This document shows positions 1,307 through 21,072 of a stretch of DNA of 36,264 nt, piece by piece. Source of the stretch: a virus (lineage: Duplodnaviria > Heunggongvirae > Uroviricota > Caudoviricetes); IMG/VR virus record IMGVR_UViG_2778261165_000017, positions 1-36,264 of that record. One strand, given 5' to 3'. A model generated the notes under the pieces. That model was not told the origin of the DNA and did no database searches. It saw only the letters and a list, made by a program, of their open reading frames with translations. A program made the position numbers and the translations under genes. Within the stretch, counting starts at the first letter, position 1. Every line of letters starts with the position of its first letter.

Positions 1307-3787
1307 TTAAAAATCAACCGGATTCGGGATCAGTTTTTGCCAGATTGCTGAAACGTATTTTGCCTGGTGACGGGCGTCATCCAGTGCATTGTGGCGCACG
1401 CCTTCGAATGGAATAACGGTTCTGGCATCAAAGTCGATTGTTTTTCCCAGCTCAACGATTGTGCGTACATCGCGATCGTTGTGGTAGCGCCACGGGCAGG
1501 GGATGTCCAGACGTTCGTATGAGGTGCGCAAAATTGCGTTATCGAAAGTTGCACCATTACCCCATACCTGAACGAATTTTTCATCTGAGTATTCGTTGAT
1601 GAACTCCCGAAACCGCGAAAGGGCATCCTTCAGTTTTACCTGGTCTGTTAAAATGGCTGCTCTGGCTTCACTGGACTGCTTCAGCCACCATTCGATGGCT
1701 CCACCGTCAGGAACAGCCCCTGTATTCATTGCGTCAGTCAGACTGATAACGATATAAAATACTGGCCCGATTTCCCCTGTTTGTGGGTCGAAGAAAACCG
1801 CACCAATAACCACGATGGGCGCATTGGTGTTGGCTCCCATCGTCTCAAGGTCGATCATCAGGTGATACCACGTTTTGCTGGTGGACTTATATTTATGATG
1901 GCCGGTCACCACAATTAAGGGATCTGCCGTCTCACCAGTTTCATTATCGCTGGCGTGGTCCTGAGCGCTGCCAGCATTCTCCTTGTGTGGATGTTCAGCG
2001 CCTTCCATTTCCTCCGGATCATTTTCCTGAACTTCAACCTGATTCTCTTCATCGAATGTTTCCTGGTATGTTGCGTCGCCCATCGCCGCGCCACAATCAG
2101 GGCAGTTGCCGCCACCGCTCTGACCGCAGGCGGTGCAGACTTTTTCCGGTTCCTGTTGCGCTACTGGCTCAGGTTGTTTCGTTTCTGGCTCGTTTTGTAA
2201 CGCATTTTGGCTGTTTTGTTCCGCTTTCTGGTCGTTCTGTTCCGATTCTTGCTGGTTCTGGTTTACAGAATCGCGGGTTTCAATCCCCTTCACCCATTTC
2301 GGATCATTCGGGTCGCTAATCCCTGCAACAAATTCTCCGCGAGAGGCAGCAAGCAACTTATCGGCGTCAGGCTGGCTGATATTGGCTGCCTGCATAATTT
2401 TGTTTACTTCGTCAGCGGTAACTTTTACCGGCTCTGGTTGTGCGGTCGTGTCAGATGCACCAGTATTTTGTTGTGAACCTGAGTACGTGCCGTTTTTACG
2501 GGCAAAATATTCTTCTTTCGTGATTTCAGTAGCCCCTGCAGCCAGCGCCTTATTCAGACCAGAAAGTTTGTTTGCACGACCATATTTTTCGCCATCCTTA
2601 TCGGTGAAGAGGAAGTAGAACGGCCCCTCACGCTCTACAGATGGTTCAGTTTCCAGCGCGCTTTCATTTTTTTGGGTATCAGATACTTCAGTTTCCACTG
2701 CATCAGTTTGTGCTGCTGACGGCTGGAGAATATCAGCAGTGCTCTGGTCTGTTTCTTCATCCTCAAACACGCCCTTTGTCGCCAGGTATTCAGTGATGTA
2801 TTTGTTCAGCGCCACGGGATCTTTGTGAATGTCGATCGGACGCTCACGGACAAGGCCAAAAATAGTCTGACGGTCGTAGCGAACGGCATCAGGTTGTTTG
2901 CGCATTGATGCGGAAATACGCTTCCAGTCTTCGCGATCTTTGTCGATAACTTCATTTTTTGCCCAGCGATGGATGCTGCCGTCAATGTTTCCGGCATCAA
3001 TATCACCAGGCCAGAAAGCGTAGGCCAGTTCTTCATCCAGTGTTTTCCATGTCTGCCTGTATTCGCGACGAATGACAGCAGTTACGGAGTCAGTTTTTCC
3101 TGCAGAGTTTTCAGTGCCTTGCCGGTTGACTCTGGCGCGGGCAAGATCGACGACGGAATTATATGCGCCACCTTCTTTGCGCTCCTTTTCCATGCGTTTT
3201 TTACGTTCGAGAAAATACGCCTGAACGTCGGGCCATTTGGCTGTTGGTTTTAAATCACGTCTGGCATCGTTGATGTACTCAATCTGACGCTCTGGATACA
3301 TGGCGTTAATTTCTCTGGTCCGGATAATTGCTTCAGCGAGGTGTCCATCAAAAGTCGTCATCTCGTCATCGCCGAGAAGCCCGCTTGCATTGATGACCAT
3401 ATCCACGGTGATGTTTTCATGTGTACCGAACCTGACAAGGACAGCAGCCCGCTTGTCGTCAGATAACTGATTAAAGTTAACAGTTTCTGTATCCGGTTCA
3501 GGGTCGACCGGAACAAAGGAAGCCGACTCCTCATTCCAGCGGTTTTCCTGCATATATTCGGAATCCCAGGAATCGAGAGCAGGGCGGGCCATGCCGGGTT
3601 TATCCTCGCAGACAAGAAATTTATAAGCACAGTCCTGAGCTTCCGGGTATTGTTCCAGAAATAACCAGCTAAATTTGGCTCTTGCCCGGCGTTCGTCGCC
3701 TGCTTCAATGGCAGTGGCCACAGGTTTAGCGCCTTCTGCTGTTGCCTGTTCGTCCGGAATGGCGGCGCAAATAAAGACTTTACTCAT
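1307..3787 (-). CDS. Large exonuclease, RecE/YdfE-family N-terminal region fused to a DnaQ-like DEDDh 3'-5' exonuclease domain (826 aa)
   Basis: C-terminus carries LMIDLETMG...GAVFF and HNALDDARH motifs typical of DEDDh exonucleases; central CxxC...CxxC cluster (CTACGQSGGGNCPDCG); N-terminus MSKVFICAAIPDE resembles Qin YdfE as recalled. Confidence 0.75.
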   Translation of the reverse strand: MSKVFICAAIPDEQATAEGAKPVATAIEAGDERRARAKFSWLFLEQYPEAQDCAYKFLVCEDKPGMARPALDSWDSEYMQENRWNEESASFVPVDPEPDTETVNFNQLSDDKRAAVLVRFGTHENITVDMVINASGLLGDDEMTTFDGHLAEAIIRTREINAMYPERQIEYINDARRDLKPTAKWPDVQAYFLERKKRMEKERKEGGAYNSVVDLARARVNRQGTENSAGKTDSVTAVIRREYRQTWKTLDEELAYAFWPGDIDAGNIDGSIHRWAKNEVIDKDREDWKRISASMRKQPDAVRYDRQTIFGLVRERPIDIHKDPVALNKYITEYLATKGVFEDEETDQSTADILQPSAAQTDAVETEVSDTQKNESALETEPSVEREGPFYFLFTDKDGEKYGRANKLSGLNKALAAGATEITKEEYFARKNGTYSGSQQNTGASDTTAQPEPVKVTADEVNKIMQAANISQPDADKLLAASRGEFVAGISDPNDPKWVKGIETRDSVNQNQQESEQNDQKAEQNSQNALQNEPETKQPEPVAQQEPEKVCTACGQSGGGNCPDCGAAMGDATYQETFDEENQVEVQENDPEEMEGAEHPHKENAGSAQDHASDNETGETADPLIVVTGHHKYKSTSKTWYHLMIDLETMGANTNAPIVVIGAVFFDPQTGEIGPVFYIVISLTDAMNTGAVPDGGAIEWWLKQSSEARAAILTDQVKLKDALSRFREFINEYSDEKFVQVWGNGATFDNAILRTSYERLDIPCPWRYHNDRDVRTIVELGKTIDFDARTVIPFEGVRHNALDDARHQAKYVSAIWQKLIPNPVDF

Positions 3788-3867
3788 TTTGTTTTAACCT
3801 CATTACAGATTTAAGGGTGAACAAATCCCTGCCATTGCTGGCATATAAAAATGAAATCGGATATTAA

Positions 3868-4071
3868 TTACGGTGCTGTTTTAAGTCCTGCCGGGATTTC
3901 GTTATTGTCCATATGAATAACTTTATCGACCGGATAACAGTTACCGGGAATTTTTTGCTCTGCCGCGGCAGTCATGCATTCTTCCATTGAGTCATGTATG
4001 TCAATAACAAGATCAATCGGTTCACCAGAAACAAAAAAAACAGTCAGAACGAGTACAAATGCCGTATTCAT
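3868..4071 (-). CDS. YdfD-like small membrane protein (67 aa)
   Basis: ATGA start/stop overlap with the upstream dicB-like gene; N-terminal hydrophobic helix (AFVLVLTVFFV); position after dicB matches the Qin dicB operon. Start could alternatively be 4080. Confidence 0.5.
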   Translation of the reverse strand: MNTAFVLVLTVFFVSGEPIDLVIDIHDSMEECMTAAAEQKIPGNCYPVDKVIHMDNNEIPAGLKTAP

Positions 4072-4256
4072 TGCCTGCATCCTGTTTGCATCAGACGTAA
4101 ACGGGCCAGCATCGAAACAATGCATATTTTATTTAGCAGTTCCTGTTCGTGTTTTCTTTTATTAATGGCATCTTCAGTAAATATCTGATTGCTGATAGTG
4201 ACACCAATTTCAAAACAACCTTCAGACGTATTAACGTTTGGTAATAACGTTTCCAT
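4068..4256 (-). CDS. dicB: DicB-like cell-division inhibitor (62 aa)
   Basis: Translation METLLPNVNTSEGCFEIGVTISN...KICIVSMLARLRLM matches DicB as recalled (62 aa); GAGGA RBS 9 nt upstream; lies 175 nt downstream of DicF. Confidence 0.7.
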   Translation of the reverse strand: METLLPNVNTSEGCFEIGVTISNQIFTEDAINKRKHEQELLNKICIVSMLARLRLMQTGCRQ

Positions 4257-4430
4257 TATCGCGTCCTCAACAATGAATTTTGTGATGCGGTGCCTGGTGC
4301 CTCCAGGTGACGTTAACCAGTTAACAATTAACGCCGGATACAGAGAATCCACCCATAACACTGTTTTTAGCTTTAACTGTTCCGCGTGCGCTTAGCCGCA
4401 TTCACCGCATCACAAAATTCACTTTAAAAA

Positions 4431-4483
4431 GGGCGGCAGAGCAGTCACGGAGTAAAACTGATACCGCCAAACGCCACCAGAAA
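4431..4483 (-). ncRNA. dicF: DicF small RNA (53 nt) with U-tail at 4426..4430
   Basis: Minus-strand sequence TTTCTGGTGGCGTTTGGCGGTATCAGTTTTACTCCGTGACTGCTCTGCCGCCC followed by TTTTT matches DicF as recalled, with one difference near the 5' end. Confidence 0.75.
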
Positions 4484-4816
4484 ATTGATAACAGAGGGCG
4501 TTGTAGCGGGGTTGTCACTTAAGCGTATGGTCAACCTGACAACCCGGTGTCCTCAACGGGGAAGGAATAACCCCGCCATACTTACCGCCGCGCCATTTCG
4601 CGGAGTGCCACAACCGGAAGCGCACGGTCGACGAAAATTTAACGACAGGCTATCTATGAACCAGCAACCTCGCCGTGCGCTTTCGCGTTATGCTCTGACT
4701 TTTCAGAGAAATATCCTTTCAGTAAACTGTCAGTGCCGGATGTTCACCCGTGTCCGGCGCACGCACTCCACTTCACCCGTGGAGAACTCCTTAATTACCA
4801 ACCCTCAGGAGGGTGA

Positions 4817-12972: not shown

Positions 12973-13127
12973 TTTTATATTGGCGAGGTGACGGGAGTTA
13001 AGTAGAATTGCTGCGGGTGCTTGAGGCTGTCTGCCTCAGGCATGAACACCAAAAGGCAGATAGAGAAAAGCCCCAGTTAACATTACGCGTCCTGCAAGAC
13101 GCTTAACATTAATCTGAGGCCATATCT

Positions 13128-13340
13128 ATGCTCTACACACGTAGGTTAGCCTCTTACGTGCCGAAAGGCAAGGAGAAGCAGGCTATGAAGCAGCAAAAGG
13201 CGATGCTAATCGCCCTGATCGTCATCTGTTTAACCGTCATAGTGACGGCACTGGTAACGAGGAAAGACCTCTGCGAGGTACGAATCCGAACCGGCCAGAC
13301 GGAGGTCGCTGTCTTCACAGCTTACGAACCTGAGGAGTAA
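13128..13340 (+). CDS. mok: Mok-like in-frame extended reading frame (70 aa)
   Basis: In-frame N-terminal extension of hok, like MokC (69 aa) as recalled. Confidence 0.5.
   Translation: MLYTRRLASYVPKGKEKQAMKQQKAMLIALIVICLTVIVTALVTRKDLCEVRIRTGQTEVAVFTAYEPEE
13185..13340 (+). CDS. hok: Hok/Gef-family type I toxin (51 aa)
   Basis: MKQQKAMLIALIVICLTVIVTALVTRKDLCEVRIRTGQTEVAVFTAYEPEE is near-identical to HokC/Gef as recalled; AAGGAG RBS. Confidence 0.85.
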   Translation: MKQQKAMLIALIVICLTVIVTALVTRKDLCEVRIRTGQTEVAVFTAYEPEE

Positions 13341-14844: not shown

Positions 14845-15210
14845 ATGACTGAACGCATAGAATTTGTTTTGCCTTACCCGCCAACGGTGAACACTTACTG
14901 GCGTCGTCGTGGCAGCACATATTTTGTATCAAAAGCCGGGGAGCGTTATCGCCGGGCAGTGGCGCTTATTGTTCGCCAGCAGCGGCTGAAATTAAGCCTG
15001 TCCGGAAGGCTGGCAATAAAAATTATTGCAGAGCCACCGGATAAGCGCCGCCGCGACCTGGACAATATCCTGAAGGCACCACTGGATGCGCTGACGCATG
15101 CCGGACTTCTCATAGACGACGAGCAGTTTGATGAAATCAATATTGTGCGCGGACTGCCTGTTCCTGGTGGTCGGCTGGGGATAAAAATCACAGAACTGGA
15201 GTGCGCATGA
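14845..15210 (+). CDS. rusA: Holliday junction resolvase RusA (121 aa)
   Basis: Motifs YPPTVNTYW, DKRRRDLDN, GGRLGIKITE align with RusA as recalled. Confidence 0.85.
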   Translation: MTERIEFVLPYPPTVNTYWRRRGSTYFVSKAGERYRRAVALIVRQQRLKLSLSGRLAIKIIAEPPDKRRRDLDNILKAPLDALTHAGLLIDDEQFDEINIVRGLPVPGGRLGIKITELECA

Positions 15211-15896
15211 ATAACCAGTATTTACAGTTTGTGCGTGAGCAGCTCATTATCGCTACCGCTGATTTGAGTGGGGCAACAAAAGGTCAGCTTGAAGCCTGGC
15301 AGGAGAATGCCATGTTTGATACAGGGCGTTACAGGCGTAAAAAAATCCGGTACCGCGATGAAGTGACTGGAAGAATGATAACGCGGGATAGTCCACCGAT
15401 ACCGGGAAAACAATCACTGGCGAAAGGCTCATCAATTGCTCTGGTAAGTCAGGTTGAGTTTTCGACATCATCATGGCGACGGGCAGTTCTGTCTCTTGAA
15501 GAACTTCATAAAGCCTGGTTGTTGTGGTGTTACAGCGGGAGTATTTATTGGGAATATCAGATCGCGATAACACAGTGGGCGTGGAATGAATTTAATGCTC
15601 AATCCGGTACCAGAAAAATTGCAGGGAAAACGCAGGAACGCCTGAAAAAATTAATCTGGCTGGCGGCGCAGGCAGTAAAAGCAGAACTTTTTGGTGGGGA
15701 AGGTTATGAATACCAGGAGCTGGCATTACTGGCGGGAGTGACAACTAAAAACTGGTCAAAAACATTTACTCGTCACTGGGTTGCAATGAAACACATTTTT
15801 CACCGACTGGATAGTGAGGCTTTATTGTTTGTAATGAGAACACGTTCAAAACAAAAGACGGCATTTTCAAAGCAAAGTGTTGCAAAAGTAGATTGA
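15207..15896 (+). CDS. Late-gene antiterminator Q-like protein (229 aa)
   Basis: ATGA overlap with rusA; lies immediately upstream of a strong promoter plus terminator and the lysis cassette; family not sequence-verified. Confidence 0.6.
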   Translation: MNNQYLQFVREQLIIATADLSGATKGQLEAWQENAMFDTGRYRRKKIRYRDEVTGRMITRDSPPIPGKQSLAKGSSIALVSQVEFSTSSWRRAVLSLEELHKAWLLWCYSGSIYWEYQIAITQWAWNEFNAQSGTRKIAGKTQERLKKLIWLAAQAVKAELFGGEGYEYQELALLAGVTTKNWSKTFTRHWVAMKHIFHRLDSEALLFVMRTRSKQKTAFSKQSVAKVD

Positions 15897-16105: not shown

Positions 16106-16181
16106 GGCCCTTTAGCTCAGTGGTGAGAGCGAGCGACTCATAATCGCCAGGTCGCTGGTTCAAATCCAGCAAGGGCCACCA
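16106..16181 (+). tRNA. tRNA with CAT anticodon, Ile2 (lysidine)-like / Met-type
   Basis: Cloverleaf folded by hand; 7-bp acceptor stem GGCCCTT/AAGGGCC; anticodon loop CTCATAA; closely resembles E. coli ileX as recalled; CCA encoded. Confidence 0.85.
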
Positions 16182-16182
16182 A

Positions 16183-16259
16183 CCGCCACTAGCTCATCAG
16201 GAAAGAGCGTCAACCCTTTAAGTTGAGTGTGCGAGGTTCGAGTCCCCGGTGGCGGTCCA
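16183..16259 (+). tRNA. tRNA-like gene with atypical anticodon loop CCTTTAA (anticodon TTT if canonical, C at position 33)
   Basis: Perfect 7-bp acceptor stem CCGCCAC/GTGGCGG, perfect 5-bp anticodon stem, T-loop TTCGAGT with one A-C mismatch in the T stem; CCA encoded. Confidence 0.55.
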
Positions 16260-16261
16260 GT

Positions 16262-16337
<76 letters not shown>

Positions 16338-16340
16338 TAT

Positions 16341-16415
<75 letters not shown>

Positions 16416-16622: not shown

Positions 16623-16647
16623 GCCCGCTTTTGCGGGCTTTTCTTTT
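16623..16647 (+). terminator. Intrinsic terminator between the tRNA region and the holin gene
   Basis: GCCCGC-TTTT-GCGGGC followed by TTTTCTTTT. Confidence 0.65.
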
Positions 16648-16707
16648 CAAATCCCTTTCATTTCTCAGTGTAAAACTACGCCATCCGTTATTTGCGGAGG
16701 TGAGGCT

Positions 16708-16923
16708 ATGAAATCCATGGACAAAATTTCAACGGGCATTGCCTATGGCACCTCCGCAGGCAGTGCTGGCTACTGGTTTTTACAGTGGCTTGATCAGGTC
16801 AGTCCGTCACAGTGGGCTGCGATTGGTGTACTGGGGAGTCTGGTTCTGGGCTTCCTGACTTATCTGACAAATCTGTACTTCAAAATCAGAGAAGACAAGC
16901 GTAAGGCTGCACGGGGAGAGTAA
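16708..16923 (+). CDS. S: Class II pinholin, phage 21 S21-like, dual start (71 aa)
   Basis: [63 protein letters not shown] is near-identical to S21 as recalled; GGAGGTGAGG RBS. Confidence 0.9.
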
Positions 16924-16927
16924 TTCA

Positions 16928-17242
16928 ATGACTCAAAACTATGAACTGATTGTGAAAGGGATCCGCAATTTTGAGAATAAAGTTACGGTAACTTTAGCGT
17001 TACGGGACAAAAAACGCTTTGACGGTGAAATTTTTGACCTGGACATCTCGCTGGACCGTGTTGAAGGTGCCGCGCTGGAGTTTTATGAGGCAGCAGCCAG
17101 AAGGAGCATCAGACAGGTCTTCCTGGATGTTGCTGCCGGGTTATGTGAAGGGGACGAGCTGTTGCCAGAAACGCGCCCCTGTTCAGAGGCGCGGTATACC
17201 ATAAAAATTAACAGTTCTGATAACTCGATTACAGGTTGTTAG
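16928..17242 (+). CDS. Hypothetical protein between holin and endolysin (104 aa)
   Basis: ATG 4 nt after the holin stop; GGGGAGAG upstream; no family recognised. Confidence 0.55.
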   Translation: MTQNYELIVKGIRNFENKVTVTLALRDKKRFDGEIFDLDISLDRVEGAALEFYEAAARRSIRQVFLDVAAGLCEGDELLPETRPCSEARYTIKINSSDNSITGC

Positions 17243-17297
17243 CTTTTTGCAGTTGGCTTTCCAGTATCTTTCATTGGTAGCATCCTGATAAATATCC

Positions 17298-17831
17298 ATG
17301 AGCGCAAAAATCAAATACGGCCTGTCAGCTGCTGTTCTGGCACTGATTGCCACCAGTGCATCTGCTCCTGACATTCTCGATCAGTTTCTGGATGAAAAAG
17401 AGGGTAACCACACCACTGCATACCGCGATGGTTCCGGCATATGGACCATTTGCCGGGGTGCCACGGTGGTGGATGGTAAACCTGTTATTCCGGGCATGAA
17501 ACTGTCGAAGGAAAAATGCGCTCAGGTTAATGCCATTGAGCGTGATAAGGCGCTGGCATGGGTGGAGCGCAATATTAAAGTACCACTGACCGAACCACAG
17601 AAAGCGGGTATAGCGTCATTTTGCCCCTATAACATTGGCCCCGGTAAGTGTTTCCCGTCGACGTTTTATAAGCGGCTGAATGCCGGTGATCGTAAAGGTG
17701 CATGCGAGGCGATTCGCTGGTGGATAAAAGATGGTGGGCGCGATTGTCGCATACGTTCAAATAACTGCTATGGACAGGTTATTCGTCGTGACCAGGAAAG
17801 CGCATTAGCCTGTTGGGGGATAGGTCAGTGA
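17298..17831 (+). CDS. R: SAR endolysin (T4-lysozyme family, 177 aa)
   Basis: N-terminal signal-anchor-release segment ([16 protein letters not shown]); lysozyme-like core resembling R21. Confidence 0.85.
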
Positions 17832-18292
17832 GCAGAGTCGCCGCGATTATCTCCGTTCTGGTTATCTGCATCATCGTCTGCCTGTCATTGGCTGTTAATC
17901 ATTACCGGGATAACGCCATCGCCTACAAAGAACAGCGTGATAAAAAAGTCAGTGAGCTGAAGCAGGCGATCGCCACCATCGCTGACATGCAGCAGCGTCA
18001 GCGTGATGTTGCTGCGCTCGATGCAAAGTACTCGAGAGAATTAGCCAATGCGAAAGCTGAAAATGAAACTCTGCGCGCTGATGTTGCCGCTGGTCGTCGT
18101 CGGTTGCACATCAAAGCAGTCTGTCAGTCAGTGCGTGAAGCCACCACCGCCTCCGGCGTGGATAATGCAGTCTCCCCCCGACTGGCAGACACCGCTGAAC
18201 GGGATTATTTCACCCTCAGAGAGCGGCTGATGACGATGCAGATGCAACTGGAAGGGGCACAGGAGTATATCCGCACTCAGTGCATTAAGTAG
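17828..18292 (+). CDS. Rz: i-spanin Rz (154 aa)
   Basis: GTG start overlapping the R stop (GTGA); N-terminal transmembrane helix; coiled-coil periplasmic domain; Rz1 embedded. Confidence 0.8.
18048..18230 (+). CDS. Rz1: o-spanin Rz1 lipoprotein embedded in Rz in the +1 frame (60 aa)
   Basis: Lipobox LVVVGC; proline-rich mature region (KPPPPPAW); wholly inside Rz. Confidence 0.8.
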
Positions 18293-18334: not shown

Positions 18335-18685
18335 ATGCCATCACGAATCCCACGCGCCTGCCGTAAGCGTGGATGTGCAGGTACAACCACAGACAGTTCT
18401 GGTTACTGCGATAAACATCGTGGCGAAGGATGGGTACAGCATCAACGCGGACTGAGCCGCCACCAGCGTGGCTATGGCTCGAAATGGGATGCCATACGTG
18501 CGCGCATACTGAAGCGTGATAATCATCTGTGTCAGAACTGCCTGCGCAATGGGAGAGCTGTTGAAGCCAGAACTGTGGACCACATCATTCCGAAAGCTCA
18601 TGGTGGCACGGATGCAGACAGTAACCTGCAGAGTCTGTGCTGGCCCTGCCATAAAGCAAAAACTGCGCACGAACGTATCAACTGA
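18335..18685 (+). CDS. HNH endonuclease (116 aa)
   Basis: CxxC...HxxxH...N...CxxCH pattern (CQNCLRNG...DHIIPKAHGG...CWPCH); immediately upstream of the terminase small subunit. Confidence 0.8.
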   Translation: MPSRIPRACRKRGCAGTTTDSSGYCDKHRGEGWVQHQRGLSRHQRGYGSKWDAIRARILKRDNHLCQNCLRNGRAVEARTVDHIIPKAHGGTDADSNLQSLCWPCHKAKTAHERIN

Positions 18686-18832: not shown

Positions 18833-19315
18833 ATGTCAGGACCCCCGAAAACCCCGCCACGCCTGCATTTGATACGAGGCAACCCCTCAAAGCGCCCCGT
18901 TAAAGACCCAAAAAAAACCGCTAAAAAGGATGAAAAAGGTCTCCCTAAAATTCCGCAACATTTAGGGTCGCAGGGGAAGTACTGGTTCAGGCGAATGGCG
19001 GAAGAACTGAATGCGGAAGGGATCATTTCTCAGCTTGATGCGCGTGCACTCGAGTTACTGGTGGAAGCCTACACCGAATACCGGCATCACTGCGAAACAC
19101 TTGATGCTGAGGGTTATACCTACCGCACGGAAACGCAGAATGGCGATGTGCTGATCAAGGCACACCCGGCTGCTGCGATGAAGGCTGATGCCTGGAAGCG
19201 GATCCGGGCGATGCTTGCAGAGTTTGGTATGTCACCGGCAAGCCGGGCCAAAGTAAATATTGCCGGACCGGATGATGTTGATCCGCTGGCGGAGCTTTTA
19301 AAAGCGAGAGACTGA
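18833..19315 (+). CDS. Terminase small subunit (P27/HK97 gp1-like, 160 aa)
   Basis: Basic N-terminus; 1-nt overlap with the large terminase gene. Confidence 0.8.
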   Translation: MSGPPKTPPRLHLIRGNPSKRPVKDPKKTAKKDEKGLPKIPQHLGSQGKYWFRRMAEELNAEGIISQLDARALELLVEAYTEYRHHCETLDAEGYTYRTETQNGDVLIKAHPAAAMKADAWKRIRAMLAEFGMSPASRAKVNIAGPDDVDPLAELLKARD

Positions 19316-21072
19316 TGGCAAAAGTGGCTGACGGGATCCGCTACGCCGAACGTGTTGTTGCAGGAGAAATTGTCGCTGGCGAATTTGTCCGTCTGGCCTG
19401 CCAGCGTTTTCTTGATGATCTGAAGTACGGCGAAGAGCGGGGGATTTATTTCAGTGAACCCCGTGCGCAGCACATCCTGAATTTCTACAAATTTGTGCCC
19501 CATGTGAAAGGGGCGCTGGCAGGCCAGCCCATTGAGTTGATGGACTGGCATGTATTTATCCTCATTAATATTTTTGGTTTTGTCATTCCGCTGGTGAATG
19601 AAGAGACCGGGGAAGTTGTCATGCGCAGCGATGGCAGCGGACGCCCGGTGATGGTGCGCCGGTTCCGGACGGCGTACAACGAAGTCGCCCGTAAAAACGC
19701 AAAATCAACCCTGTCATCGGGTATCGGCCTGTATATGACGGGGGCAGATGGTGAAGGCGGTGCTGAGGTGTATTCAGCCGCAACCACGCGTGACCAGGCC
19801 AGAATCGTGTTTGAAGACGCCAAAAATATGGTCAGAAAAGCCCGGTCGACACTCGGGCGGTTGTTTGATTTCAACAAGCTGGCGATTTACCAGGAGCAGA
19901 GCGCATCAAAATTTGAACCGCTTTCCTCGGATGCAAACAACCTGGACGGTCTGAACATCCACTGCGCCATTATTGATGAGCTGCATGCACATAAAACCCG
20001 CGACGTATGGGACGTTCTGGAGACGGCAACCGGTGCCCGTCTGCAGTCCCTGTTATTTGGCATCACCACGGCTGGCTTTAACAAGGAAGGGATTTGTTAC
20101 GAGCAGCGTGATTACGCCATTAAGGTATTGCGAGGCTATAACAGCGACGTGGAGGGCGCGGTAAAAGACGACTCCTACTTTGCGATCATTTACACGCTCG
20201 ATGAGGGAGATGATCCGTTTGATGAAACGGTCTGGCAGAAAGCGAATCCTGGCCTGGGCATCTGTAAACGCTGGGATGATTTGCGTCGTCTGGCGAAAAA
20301 GGCGAAGGAGCAGGTTTCTGCGCGGGTGAATTTTTTCACGAAACACATGAATGTGTGGGTCACTGCCGAGTCTGCCTGGATGGACATGATTAAGTGGGAG
20401 AAATGCGAATATATTGCCCCACGACATGAGCTGAAAACGTATCCCATGTGGGTCGGCGTTGACCTTGCTCATAAGATTGATATCTGTGCGGCGGCAAAAC
20501 TCTGGCGAACGGATAACGGGCATGTTCATGCCGATTTTAAATTCTGGCTCCCGGAAGGACGGCTGGAACGATGCTCGCGGCAGCAGGCAGAACTTTACCG
20601 GAAGTGGGCGGAGATGGATAAGCTGATTCTGACGGATGGTGATGTTATCGATCATGCTCAGATAAAAAGTGACTTACTGGAATGGATTGGTGGTGAAAAC
20701 CTCAGGGAACTGGGATTTGACCCGTGGAGCGCGATGCAGTTCAGCCTGGCACTGGCTGAAGAAGGGATACCGCTGGTGGAGGTTCCGCAGACGGTTCGCA
20801 ATCTGTCAGAGGCCATGAAGGAAACGGAATCACTGGTCTATGCCGGGCGTTTCCATCACAGCAATCATCCGGTCATGAACTGGATGATGTCTAACGTTAC
20901 GGTAAAACCGGACAAAAACGACAATATCTTCCCGAATAAATCCACGCCGGAAGCCAAAATCGACGGCCCTGTTGCGATGTTTACAGCAATGAGCCGGATG
21001 CTGGTCAATGGTGGTGAACCGGAGCCGGATCTGTCTGAACATCTGGTCAGCGTGGGCATCCGCTCACTTTAA
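19315..21072 (+). CDS. Terminase large subunit (585 aa)
   Basis: Size, position and ATPase/nuclease-type motifs typical of HK97-like TerL. Confidence 0.9.

Follow-up and report, generated by a model that had tools for sequence, protein, structure and literature searches.

A YdfR-family (DUF1327) gene as an optional insert between a phage-21-type holin and its endolysin, with a possible link to RNase E/G

Introduction

What is the business of a small, soluble-looking protein whose gene is wedged between the holin and the endolysin of a phage lysis cassette? The locus that raises this question lies in a 36,264-nt stretch of tailed-phage DNA (IMG/VR record IMGVR_UViG_2778261165_000017), which we refer to, at its full length, as the window. 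A preliminary description, made from the sequence alone, had noted a 104-aa gene between a pinholin and a SAR endolysin, which in phage 21 follow each other directly. It was unable to assign this gene to a family, and offered three options for its function: a regulator of lysis timing, a co-expressed accessory protein, or inserted cargo. Here we ask to which family the gene belongs, how firmly it is tied to lysis genes, and on what its product may act.

Results

The gene and its surroundings

The gene occupies positions 16928-17242 on the + strand, with an ATG start and a TAG stop. The open reading frame list agrees exactly with the coordinates, the length of 104 aa and both spacings of the preliminary description: 4 nt (TTCA) separate the holin stop at 16923 from the ATG at 16928, and 55 nt separate the stop of the gene from the endolysin start at 17298. 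The claim that it has its own ribosome-binding site holds as well, since the Shine-Dalgarno sequence GGGGAGAG can be read at 16913-16920 (+), within the 3’ end of the holin gene and 7 nt 5’ of the ATG. With a top 19-residue Kyte-Doolittle mean of 0.75 and a pI of 4.85, the product is indeed soluble-looking, and acidic. The same 19-residue hydropathy analysis found no membrane segment or hydrophobic N-terminus, by which a membrane antiholin would be recognized. The GC content of the gene is 47%, versus 50.7% for the window.

The holin gene upstream (16708-16923, +) encodes 71 aa with an MKSM dual start and is of the phage 21 type, matching PF04971, ‘Bacteriophage P21 holin S’, with an E-value of 1.4e-35, as well as phrog_9876 and phrog_20 (‘holin’); its top 19-residue hydropathy is 1.72. 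Downstream, a 177-aa lysozyme-type endolysin of the RrrQ type (17298-17831, +; PF00959, E 2.6e-24) is 92% identical to RrrQ of Escherichia coli K-12. Its weakly hydrophobic N-terminus (residues 9-27) and its E35-x8-D44-x5-T50 triad would fit a putative SAR endolysin. The cassette continues with an Rz-like spanin gene (17828-18292, +; PF03245, E 3.9e-49; phrog_13), whose start we placed, in line with the annotation of phage PhiR47_1, at a GTG overlapping the stop codon of the endolysin gene. Within it, in another frame, the open reading frame list holds an Rz1-like putative lipoprotein ORF with a proline-rich segment (18048-18230, +), which by analogy would parallel rzoQ within rzpQ of K-12.

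A consensus scan placed a terminator-like GC hairpin and T-run, GCCCGCTTTTGCGGGC followed by TTTTCTTTTC, at 16623-16638 (+), and this predicted terminator 5’ of the lysis cassette probably requires Q-dependent readthrough. On the + strand from 16639 to 17870, a simple consensus search, which amounts to a weak negative, returned no promoter-like or terminator-like sites; by the same weak negative, the gene lacks the flanking promoter and terminator of its own by which a moron is recognized. The consensus scan likewise found no promoter-like site from 16356 up to the gene, i.e. after the tRNA genes, and expression is therefore expected only once Q permits late transcription. The tRNA genes in question, Met-CAT, Lys-TTT, Thr-TGT and Gly-TCC (16106-16415, +), lie between a Q-like antiterminator gene at 15201-15896 and the holin gene. 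The same four are present in PhiR47_1, while in Stx phages the equivalent position is taken by ileZ-argN-argO.

A known but narrow family

Contrary to the preliminary description, database searches do place the gene in a family. The 104-aa protein is a member of Pfam PF07041 (DUF1327), with an E-value of 5e-39 and 132.8 bits against a cut-off of 25, residues 1-96 aligning to positions 1-90 of the 93 in the model, and it matches phrog_2735 over its full length (E 3.5e-55). RefSeq and phage annotation name it “YdfR family protein”. Protein PERCE_61 of phage Perceval, which lies in the same holin/lysozyme context, is 100% identical to it, and one E. coli chromosome holds a 100% identical gene. 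YdfR of K-12 (b1555, Qin prophage, UniProt P76160), encoded at the same position in the order essQ-ydfR-rrrQ-rzpQ/rzoQ that is also found in the window, is 65% identical overall and identical at 59/72 (82%) of residues 1-72, whereas the last 30 residues of the two proteins share no sequence relationship. Membership of DUF1327 and the accessory status of the gene are near certain, and we are dealing with an ordinary member of an already known, poorly understood family, not with a new gene class.

Beyond this assignment, the searches returned little. Pfam and PHROG scans gave only DUF1327 and PHROGs of unknown function, and NCBIfam gave no match; in these three sets of scans there was no homology to the known lysis regulators S21-71, T4 RI/RIII and P1 LydB. 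None of the PADLOC defence models matched at E-values up to 1, nor did any solved structure in a sequence search at E-values up to 10. The family is also narrow: when 1.84 billion representative proteins were searched exhaustively with HMMER, only 60 matched at E-values up to 0.001. The giant proteins P0149 and P0159, which the HMMER search also returned, were discarded, as they consist of Ig/cadherin repeats and match via repetitive beta-strand composition.

The named sources of DUF1327 proteins are Escherichia, Shigella, Salmonella and Yersinia, in whose lambdoid prophages the gene is an optional member of the late operon. A scan of genome contigs with one narrow peptide pattern returned only Escherichia, Shigella and one Veillonella MAG, and because it relied on that single pattern it understates the range of the family. 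The contig in question, JAGZPX010000007.1, is labelled Veillonella parvula, yet its DUF1327 gene (81% identity) resembles those of E. coli and does not differ from the E. coli and E. ruysiae matches; it is probably a binning contaminant.

A conserved N-terminal domain with a variable tail

AlphaFold2 models residues 1-70 with a pLDDT of ~82-95, as three antiparallel strands (5-14, 18-27 and 34-43) followed by a long helix (50-71), while the pLDDT of residues 77-104 remains below 50. Together with conserved columns and dN/dS, this delimits a conserved N-terminal domain of aa 1-72 (16928-17143, +), which is retained across four genera. In family alignments its invariant columns include E6, G47, Y53, E54 and A57, in the motif EGAxLEFYEA. 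Pairwise dN/dS over codons 1-72 amounts to 0.23-0.30 for five relatives with measurable dS (0.25 for the window versus K-12), and to 0.39 for the window versus a Salmonella copy. This constraint, and the score of 132.8 bits against DUF1327, indicate a real gene, not a chance ORF.

The remainder of the protein, aa 73-104 (17144-17239, +; CEGDELLPETRPCSEARYTIKINSSDNSITGC), was set apart by pLDDT and alignments as a variable C-terminal tail that we call type A. Other DUF1327 members carry unrelated tails of several types, for total lengths of 72 to 287 aa, and in Yersinia prophages and E. coli phage Evi the 72-aa domain is the entire protein. The type A tail is kept in the Salmonella copy, with a dN/dS of ~0.28 over a small sample of 23 codons. 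Given that the 72-aa domain exists as a whole protein in Yersinia and Evi, is modelled with high confidence and evolves with a dN/dS of ~0.25, it is the functional unit, to which the tail is appended in variable form. An NCBI contig has an annotated 150-aa read-through version of exactly the window protein (P0003), in which the stop is replaced by Tyr; its ORF crosses the spacer and runs, out of frame, into the beginning of the endolysin gene.

The preliminary description had proposed structure prediction as a check. This supplied a fold for the N-terminal domain and no significant structural relative of the model. Its core of three strands plus helix superposes on several double-stranded RNA-binding domains at 2.5-3 Å over 52-60 residues; such a fold was nevertheless rejected, since it demands an alpha-beta-beta-beta-alpha topology with a significant structural match, a combination that the model does not show.

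An optional gene at the holin/endolysin junction

The preliminary description had also suggested looking for the gene in related phage-21-type cassettes, and regarded homology to a common, characterized component of such cassettes as an argument against its reading. Common it certainly is: by megablast, DUF1327-like DNA is present in 4249 of 5426 complete E. coli genomes (~78%), at up to 8 places per genome, and the holin-DUF1327-lysozyme layout is shared by K-12 Qin, PhiR47_1, Perceval, BP-4795, Stx1_499 and HannyBb. It can be called characterized only marginally. In a lambda-induction array, the change of b1555 was no more than marginal. Of the sequenced phage records, 438 encode a phage-21-type holin and 101 a DUF1327 protein (~23%).

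Phage 933W offers a direct comparison. It has the same holin family and lysozyme type without DUF1327, and its junction, GGGGAGAGTAAGCTGATG, again consists of GGGGAGAG, TAA, 4 nt and ATG. There the Shine-Dalgarno sequence serves the endolysin, since R starts 4 nt past the S stop. Its absence from 933W and from most phage records with the same holin type means that the DUF1327 gene is an optional insert at the holin/endolysin junction.

Sites outside lysis cassettes and convergent partner genes

The Salmonella copy follows a holin of a different family (PF16080) and still precedes a lysozyme gene. In Yersinia and related contigs, DUF1327 is instead inserted among tail genes, at either the M/L or the I/J junction. 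All observed sites are in a late operon, and the family as a whole is not lysis-specific.

Furthermore, DUF1327 is often paired with a small gene of opposite orientation, such that the 3’ ends abut or overlap. One such pair consists of a 72-aa DUF1327 protein and a 98-101-aa protein of PHROG 25324, and is found between S and R in Evi and between M and L as well as I and J in Yersinia. In Yersinia it forms a cassette of ~750 bp (72-aa DUF1327 plus 98-99-aa PHROG 25324; ~3471-4225 in loci L024/L025 and 419-958 in locus L030) that is nearly identical at two tail-gene sites with unrelated flanks. The other pair joins a DUF1327 protein with a longer tail to a protein of 74-83 aa (PHROG 21218, weakly PHROG 6806), and occurs in Perceval, Salmonella and Yersinia. 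Its 79-aa version (PHROG 21218) lies on the - strand at 4312-4551 of the Perceval locus (L003) and 3309-3548 of the Salmonella locus (L020). These two copies are 82% identical with a dN/dS of 0.18, which indicates purifying selection. In Perceval, the 79-aa gene is covered by no annotated feature, and a consensus scan found no promoter for it on the right strand.

Partners are sparse among the sequences at hand. DNA of the 79-aa gene is present in 103 of 5426 E. coli genomes, and among the matches listed all eight overlap a YdfR-family gene. Each of the partner genes occurs in one phage record only, so that 2 of the ~101 DUF1327-bearing phage records hold either of them. Neither has a significant Pfam or PADLOC match (best PADLOC E-value 0.027). 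In the Stx1a phage Stx1_499, a 233-aa antisense ORF without a family match (3041-3742, -, of locus L005) overlaps the putative C-terminal extension of an annotated 263-aa DUF1327 protein, and either of the two readings may be the real one. DUF1327 and its convergent gene are thus a mobile two-gene cassette, of which the window copy, like that of K-12 and of most E. coli, is an orphan.

The 55-nt spacer as a deletion scar

The spacer between the DUF1327 and endolysin genes gives a clue as to how the window copy came to be alone. Aligned with Perceval, positions 17239-17282 (44 nt, -) correspond to the last 13 codons and the stop of the convergent 79-aa gene (phrog_21218), reading LPMKDTGKPTAKS in the window versus LPMKDIGKPTETKG in Perceval. 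Perceval keeps the intact gene in a gap of 370 nt, whereas by DNA alignment the window has lost ~310-315 nt. The alignment thus shows that the 55-nt spacer is a deletion scar of the partner gene, which has left DUF1327 as an orphan in the window. The spacer has no Rfam match, and its RNA shows no notable structure (z = -0.03 versus shuffled sequence).

What remains of the spacer is an A/T-rich endolysin leader, TCCTGATAAATATCC (17283-17297, +), which is conserved in Perceval and K-12 Qin and contains no Shine-Dalgarno sequence. The ydfR and rrrQ genes of K-12 overlap, stop with start, in the sequence ATGA. This coupling is absent in the window, where the scar separates the corresponding genes. 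With the genes 55 nt apart instead of overlapping, and with the holin-embedded Shine-Dalgarno sequence used by DUF1327, translation of the window endolysin may be weaker.

Discussion

So what exactly does the DUF1327 protein do? The literature offers experiments on K-12 YdfR (PMC13232886) as the single functional lead we found. In this 2026 study, residues 1-72 of YdfR were recovered by a two-hybrid screen with RNase G as bait, and in bacterial two-hybrid assays these residues also sufficed for binding to RNase E, via its catalytic N-terminal half. When Strep-YdfR was purified from lysates, FLAG-tagged RNase E(1-598) co-eluted, and the Strep-YdfR eluate was rich in DNase-resistant nucleic acid, YdfR co-purifying with RNA (PMC13232886). 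As the co-purification was carried out without nuclease treatment, the contact between YdfR and RNase E may be indirect (PMC13232886). Overproduction of YdfR altered few transcripts and did not slow growth, and RNA-seq of K-12 under standard conditions gave almost no ydfR reads (PMC13232886). A separate study in EHEC reported that when RNase E and RNase G are both deficient, lysis is delayed and the yields of Stx2 and of lambda-like stx2 phages drop (PMC8443680), from which it follows that these enzymes matter for late operons of this kind.

By analogy with K-12 YdfR, we propose that the window protein would be a late-expressed, cytoplasmic binder of RNase E/G, a reading to which we assign a probability of about 40%. 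It draws together the consistent location of DUF1327 in late operons, its independence of lysis genes, the lack of a promoter-like site of its own, and the retention of the interacting segment. The protein would be made late, when Q allows readthrough, from the Shine-Dalgarno sequence within the end of the holin gene, and would most likely remain in the cytoplasm, where, late in the lytic cycle, it would engage the RNA-decay machinery of the host by modulating RNase E/G or serving them as an adaptor. Neither the holin nor the endolysin would then probably be its target, and if lysis timing were affected at all, this would happen indirectly, via the stability of late transcripts. Such an indirect effect on timing through RNase E/G is possible in light of both studies (PMC13232886, PMC8443680).

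The functional options of the preliminary description can be weighed against this proposal. Patchy presence and the mobile cassette speak for a co-expressed accessory protein and for inserted cargo alike, whereas the option of a lysis-timing regulator found no direct support. Cytoplasmic proteins can in principle do this, as T4 RIII and P1 LydB regulate lysis in their own systems. A protein that binds the pinholin, the endolysin or their mRNAs to set the time of lysis would also account for Escherichia, Shigella and Salmonella copies always lying between holin and lysozyme, for the distance to the holin stop, which is exactly 4 nt in all E. coli cases examined, and for the DUF1327 gene taking the holin-embedded Shine-Dalgarno sequence while the endolysin leader has none. 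However, ~77% of phage records with a phage-21-type holin do without DUF1327, and 933W manages in its absence. The protein lacks a membrane segment and matches no PHROG or Pfam of a lysis category, and its overproduction in K-12 leaves growth unaffected. Above all, the Yersinia homologues sit among tail genes, far from lysis genes, which, together with the mobile two-gene cassette, makes a direct role in lysis unlikely; we would be quite surprised if it proved correct.

The convergent genes suggest another target. DUF1327 might neutralize or down-regulate a partner expressed in the lysogen once the phage switches to lytic growth, possibly by handing the partner mRNA to RNase E, in which case the window copy would be a leftover. 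Two partner families travel with DUF1327 with abutting or overlapping 3’ ends, the ~750 bp cassette recurs nearly unchanged at two tail-gene sites, the window retains 44 nt of a partner, and partnerless K-12 YdfR, when overproduced, alters few transcripts. Conversely, orphans are far more common (DUF1327-like DNA in 4249 E. coli genomes versus 103 for the 79-aa partner, and only 2 of ~101 DUF1327-bearing phage records with either partner) and yet remain under purifying selection, as the dN/dS of 0.25 between the window and K-12 illustrates. It is also hard to picture how one conserved protein would deal with unrelated partners, and these match no known defence family. On balance we consider a partner-directed role unlikely. 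The same holds for a version that borrows from our proposal, in which DUF1327 would be a RapZ-like adaptor within a mobile late-operon module, silencing a lysogen-expressed partner or resolving a clash between sense and antisense transcription. Taken jointly with this adaptor reading, and with no better odds, the module would consist of a late 72-aa RNase E/G binder and an opposite-strand gene of at least two unrelated families.

Could the gene instead be a moron that is expressed in the lysogen for the benefit of the host, through defence, phage exclusion or stress tolerance, and is merely housed in the lysis cassette? Its presence in some homologous cassettes and absence from others, its mobility between sites and its GC content of 47% versus 50.7% are what one would expect of such cargo. 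Moreover, overexpression in K-12 raises the streptomycin MIC threefold (PMC12924614), and an envelope-screen hit is cited in PMC13232886. Against this, no promoter-like site precedes the gene, which starts 4 nt behind the holin, K-12 yields almost no ydfR reads under standard conditions, and PADLOC finds no match. As to the screen, ydfR was not found in the main text of the cited paper, and a kanamycin-cassette deletion could act through polar effects on expression of the downstream lysozyme. A lysogenic benefit therefore seems very unlikely. The least probable reading is that of a decaying passenger without current function. It would suit the variable tail, the many truncated, fused or read-through variants and the scar adjoining the gene, but is hard to reconcile with a dN/dS of ~0.25-0.39 across divergent copies, an ORF that is intact in thousands of genomes, and an N-terminal domain kept in four genera. 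The remaining probability falls to an explanation not yet conceived.

To return to the proposed binding of RNase E/G, several phage proteins are known to act on RNase E, i.e. T4 Srd, T7 gp0.7 and phiKZ Dip, and may be functional analogues only. A further possible analogue is the host adaptor RapZ, which shares with K-12 YdfR both an RNA cargo and the N-terminal half of RNase E as its binding site (PMC13232886). The YdfR family is among the commonest unexplained genes of E. coli prophages and is present in many Stx1 and Stx2c phages. DUF1327 heads a late transcript that also encodes the lysis proteins and, if the phage is of the Stx type, the toxin. Should it be true that YdfR tunes RNase E/G, then late-gene expression, toxin yield and the timing of lysis could all shift. 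What this study adds to the picture of the family is its presence beyond lysis cassettes, its modular build, and its recurrent pairing with an opposite-strand gene.

Several other features of the window deserve mention. Rfam detects a sok antitoxin RNA at 13015-13190 (+; 117.8 bits), which would imply that the early prophage region contains a toxin-antitoxin locus of the hok/sok type, and a DicF small RNA at 4431-4482 (-; 76.4 bits), the latter also being present in the Qin prophage of K-12. Downstream of the lysis genes, a Cys/His-rich ORF of 116 aa (18335-18685, +) lies directly 5’ of putative genes for the small (18833-19315) and large (19315-21072) terminase subunits. It looks like an HNH endonuclease, which in HK97-like phages is often found 5’ of the terminase genes.
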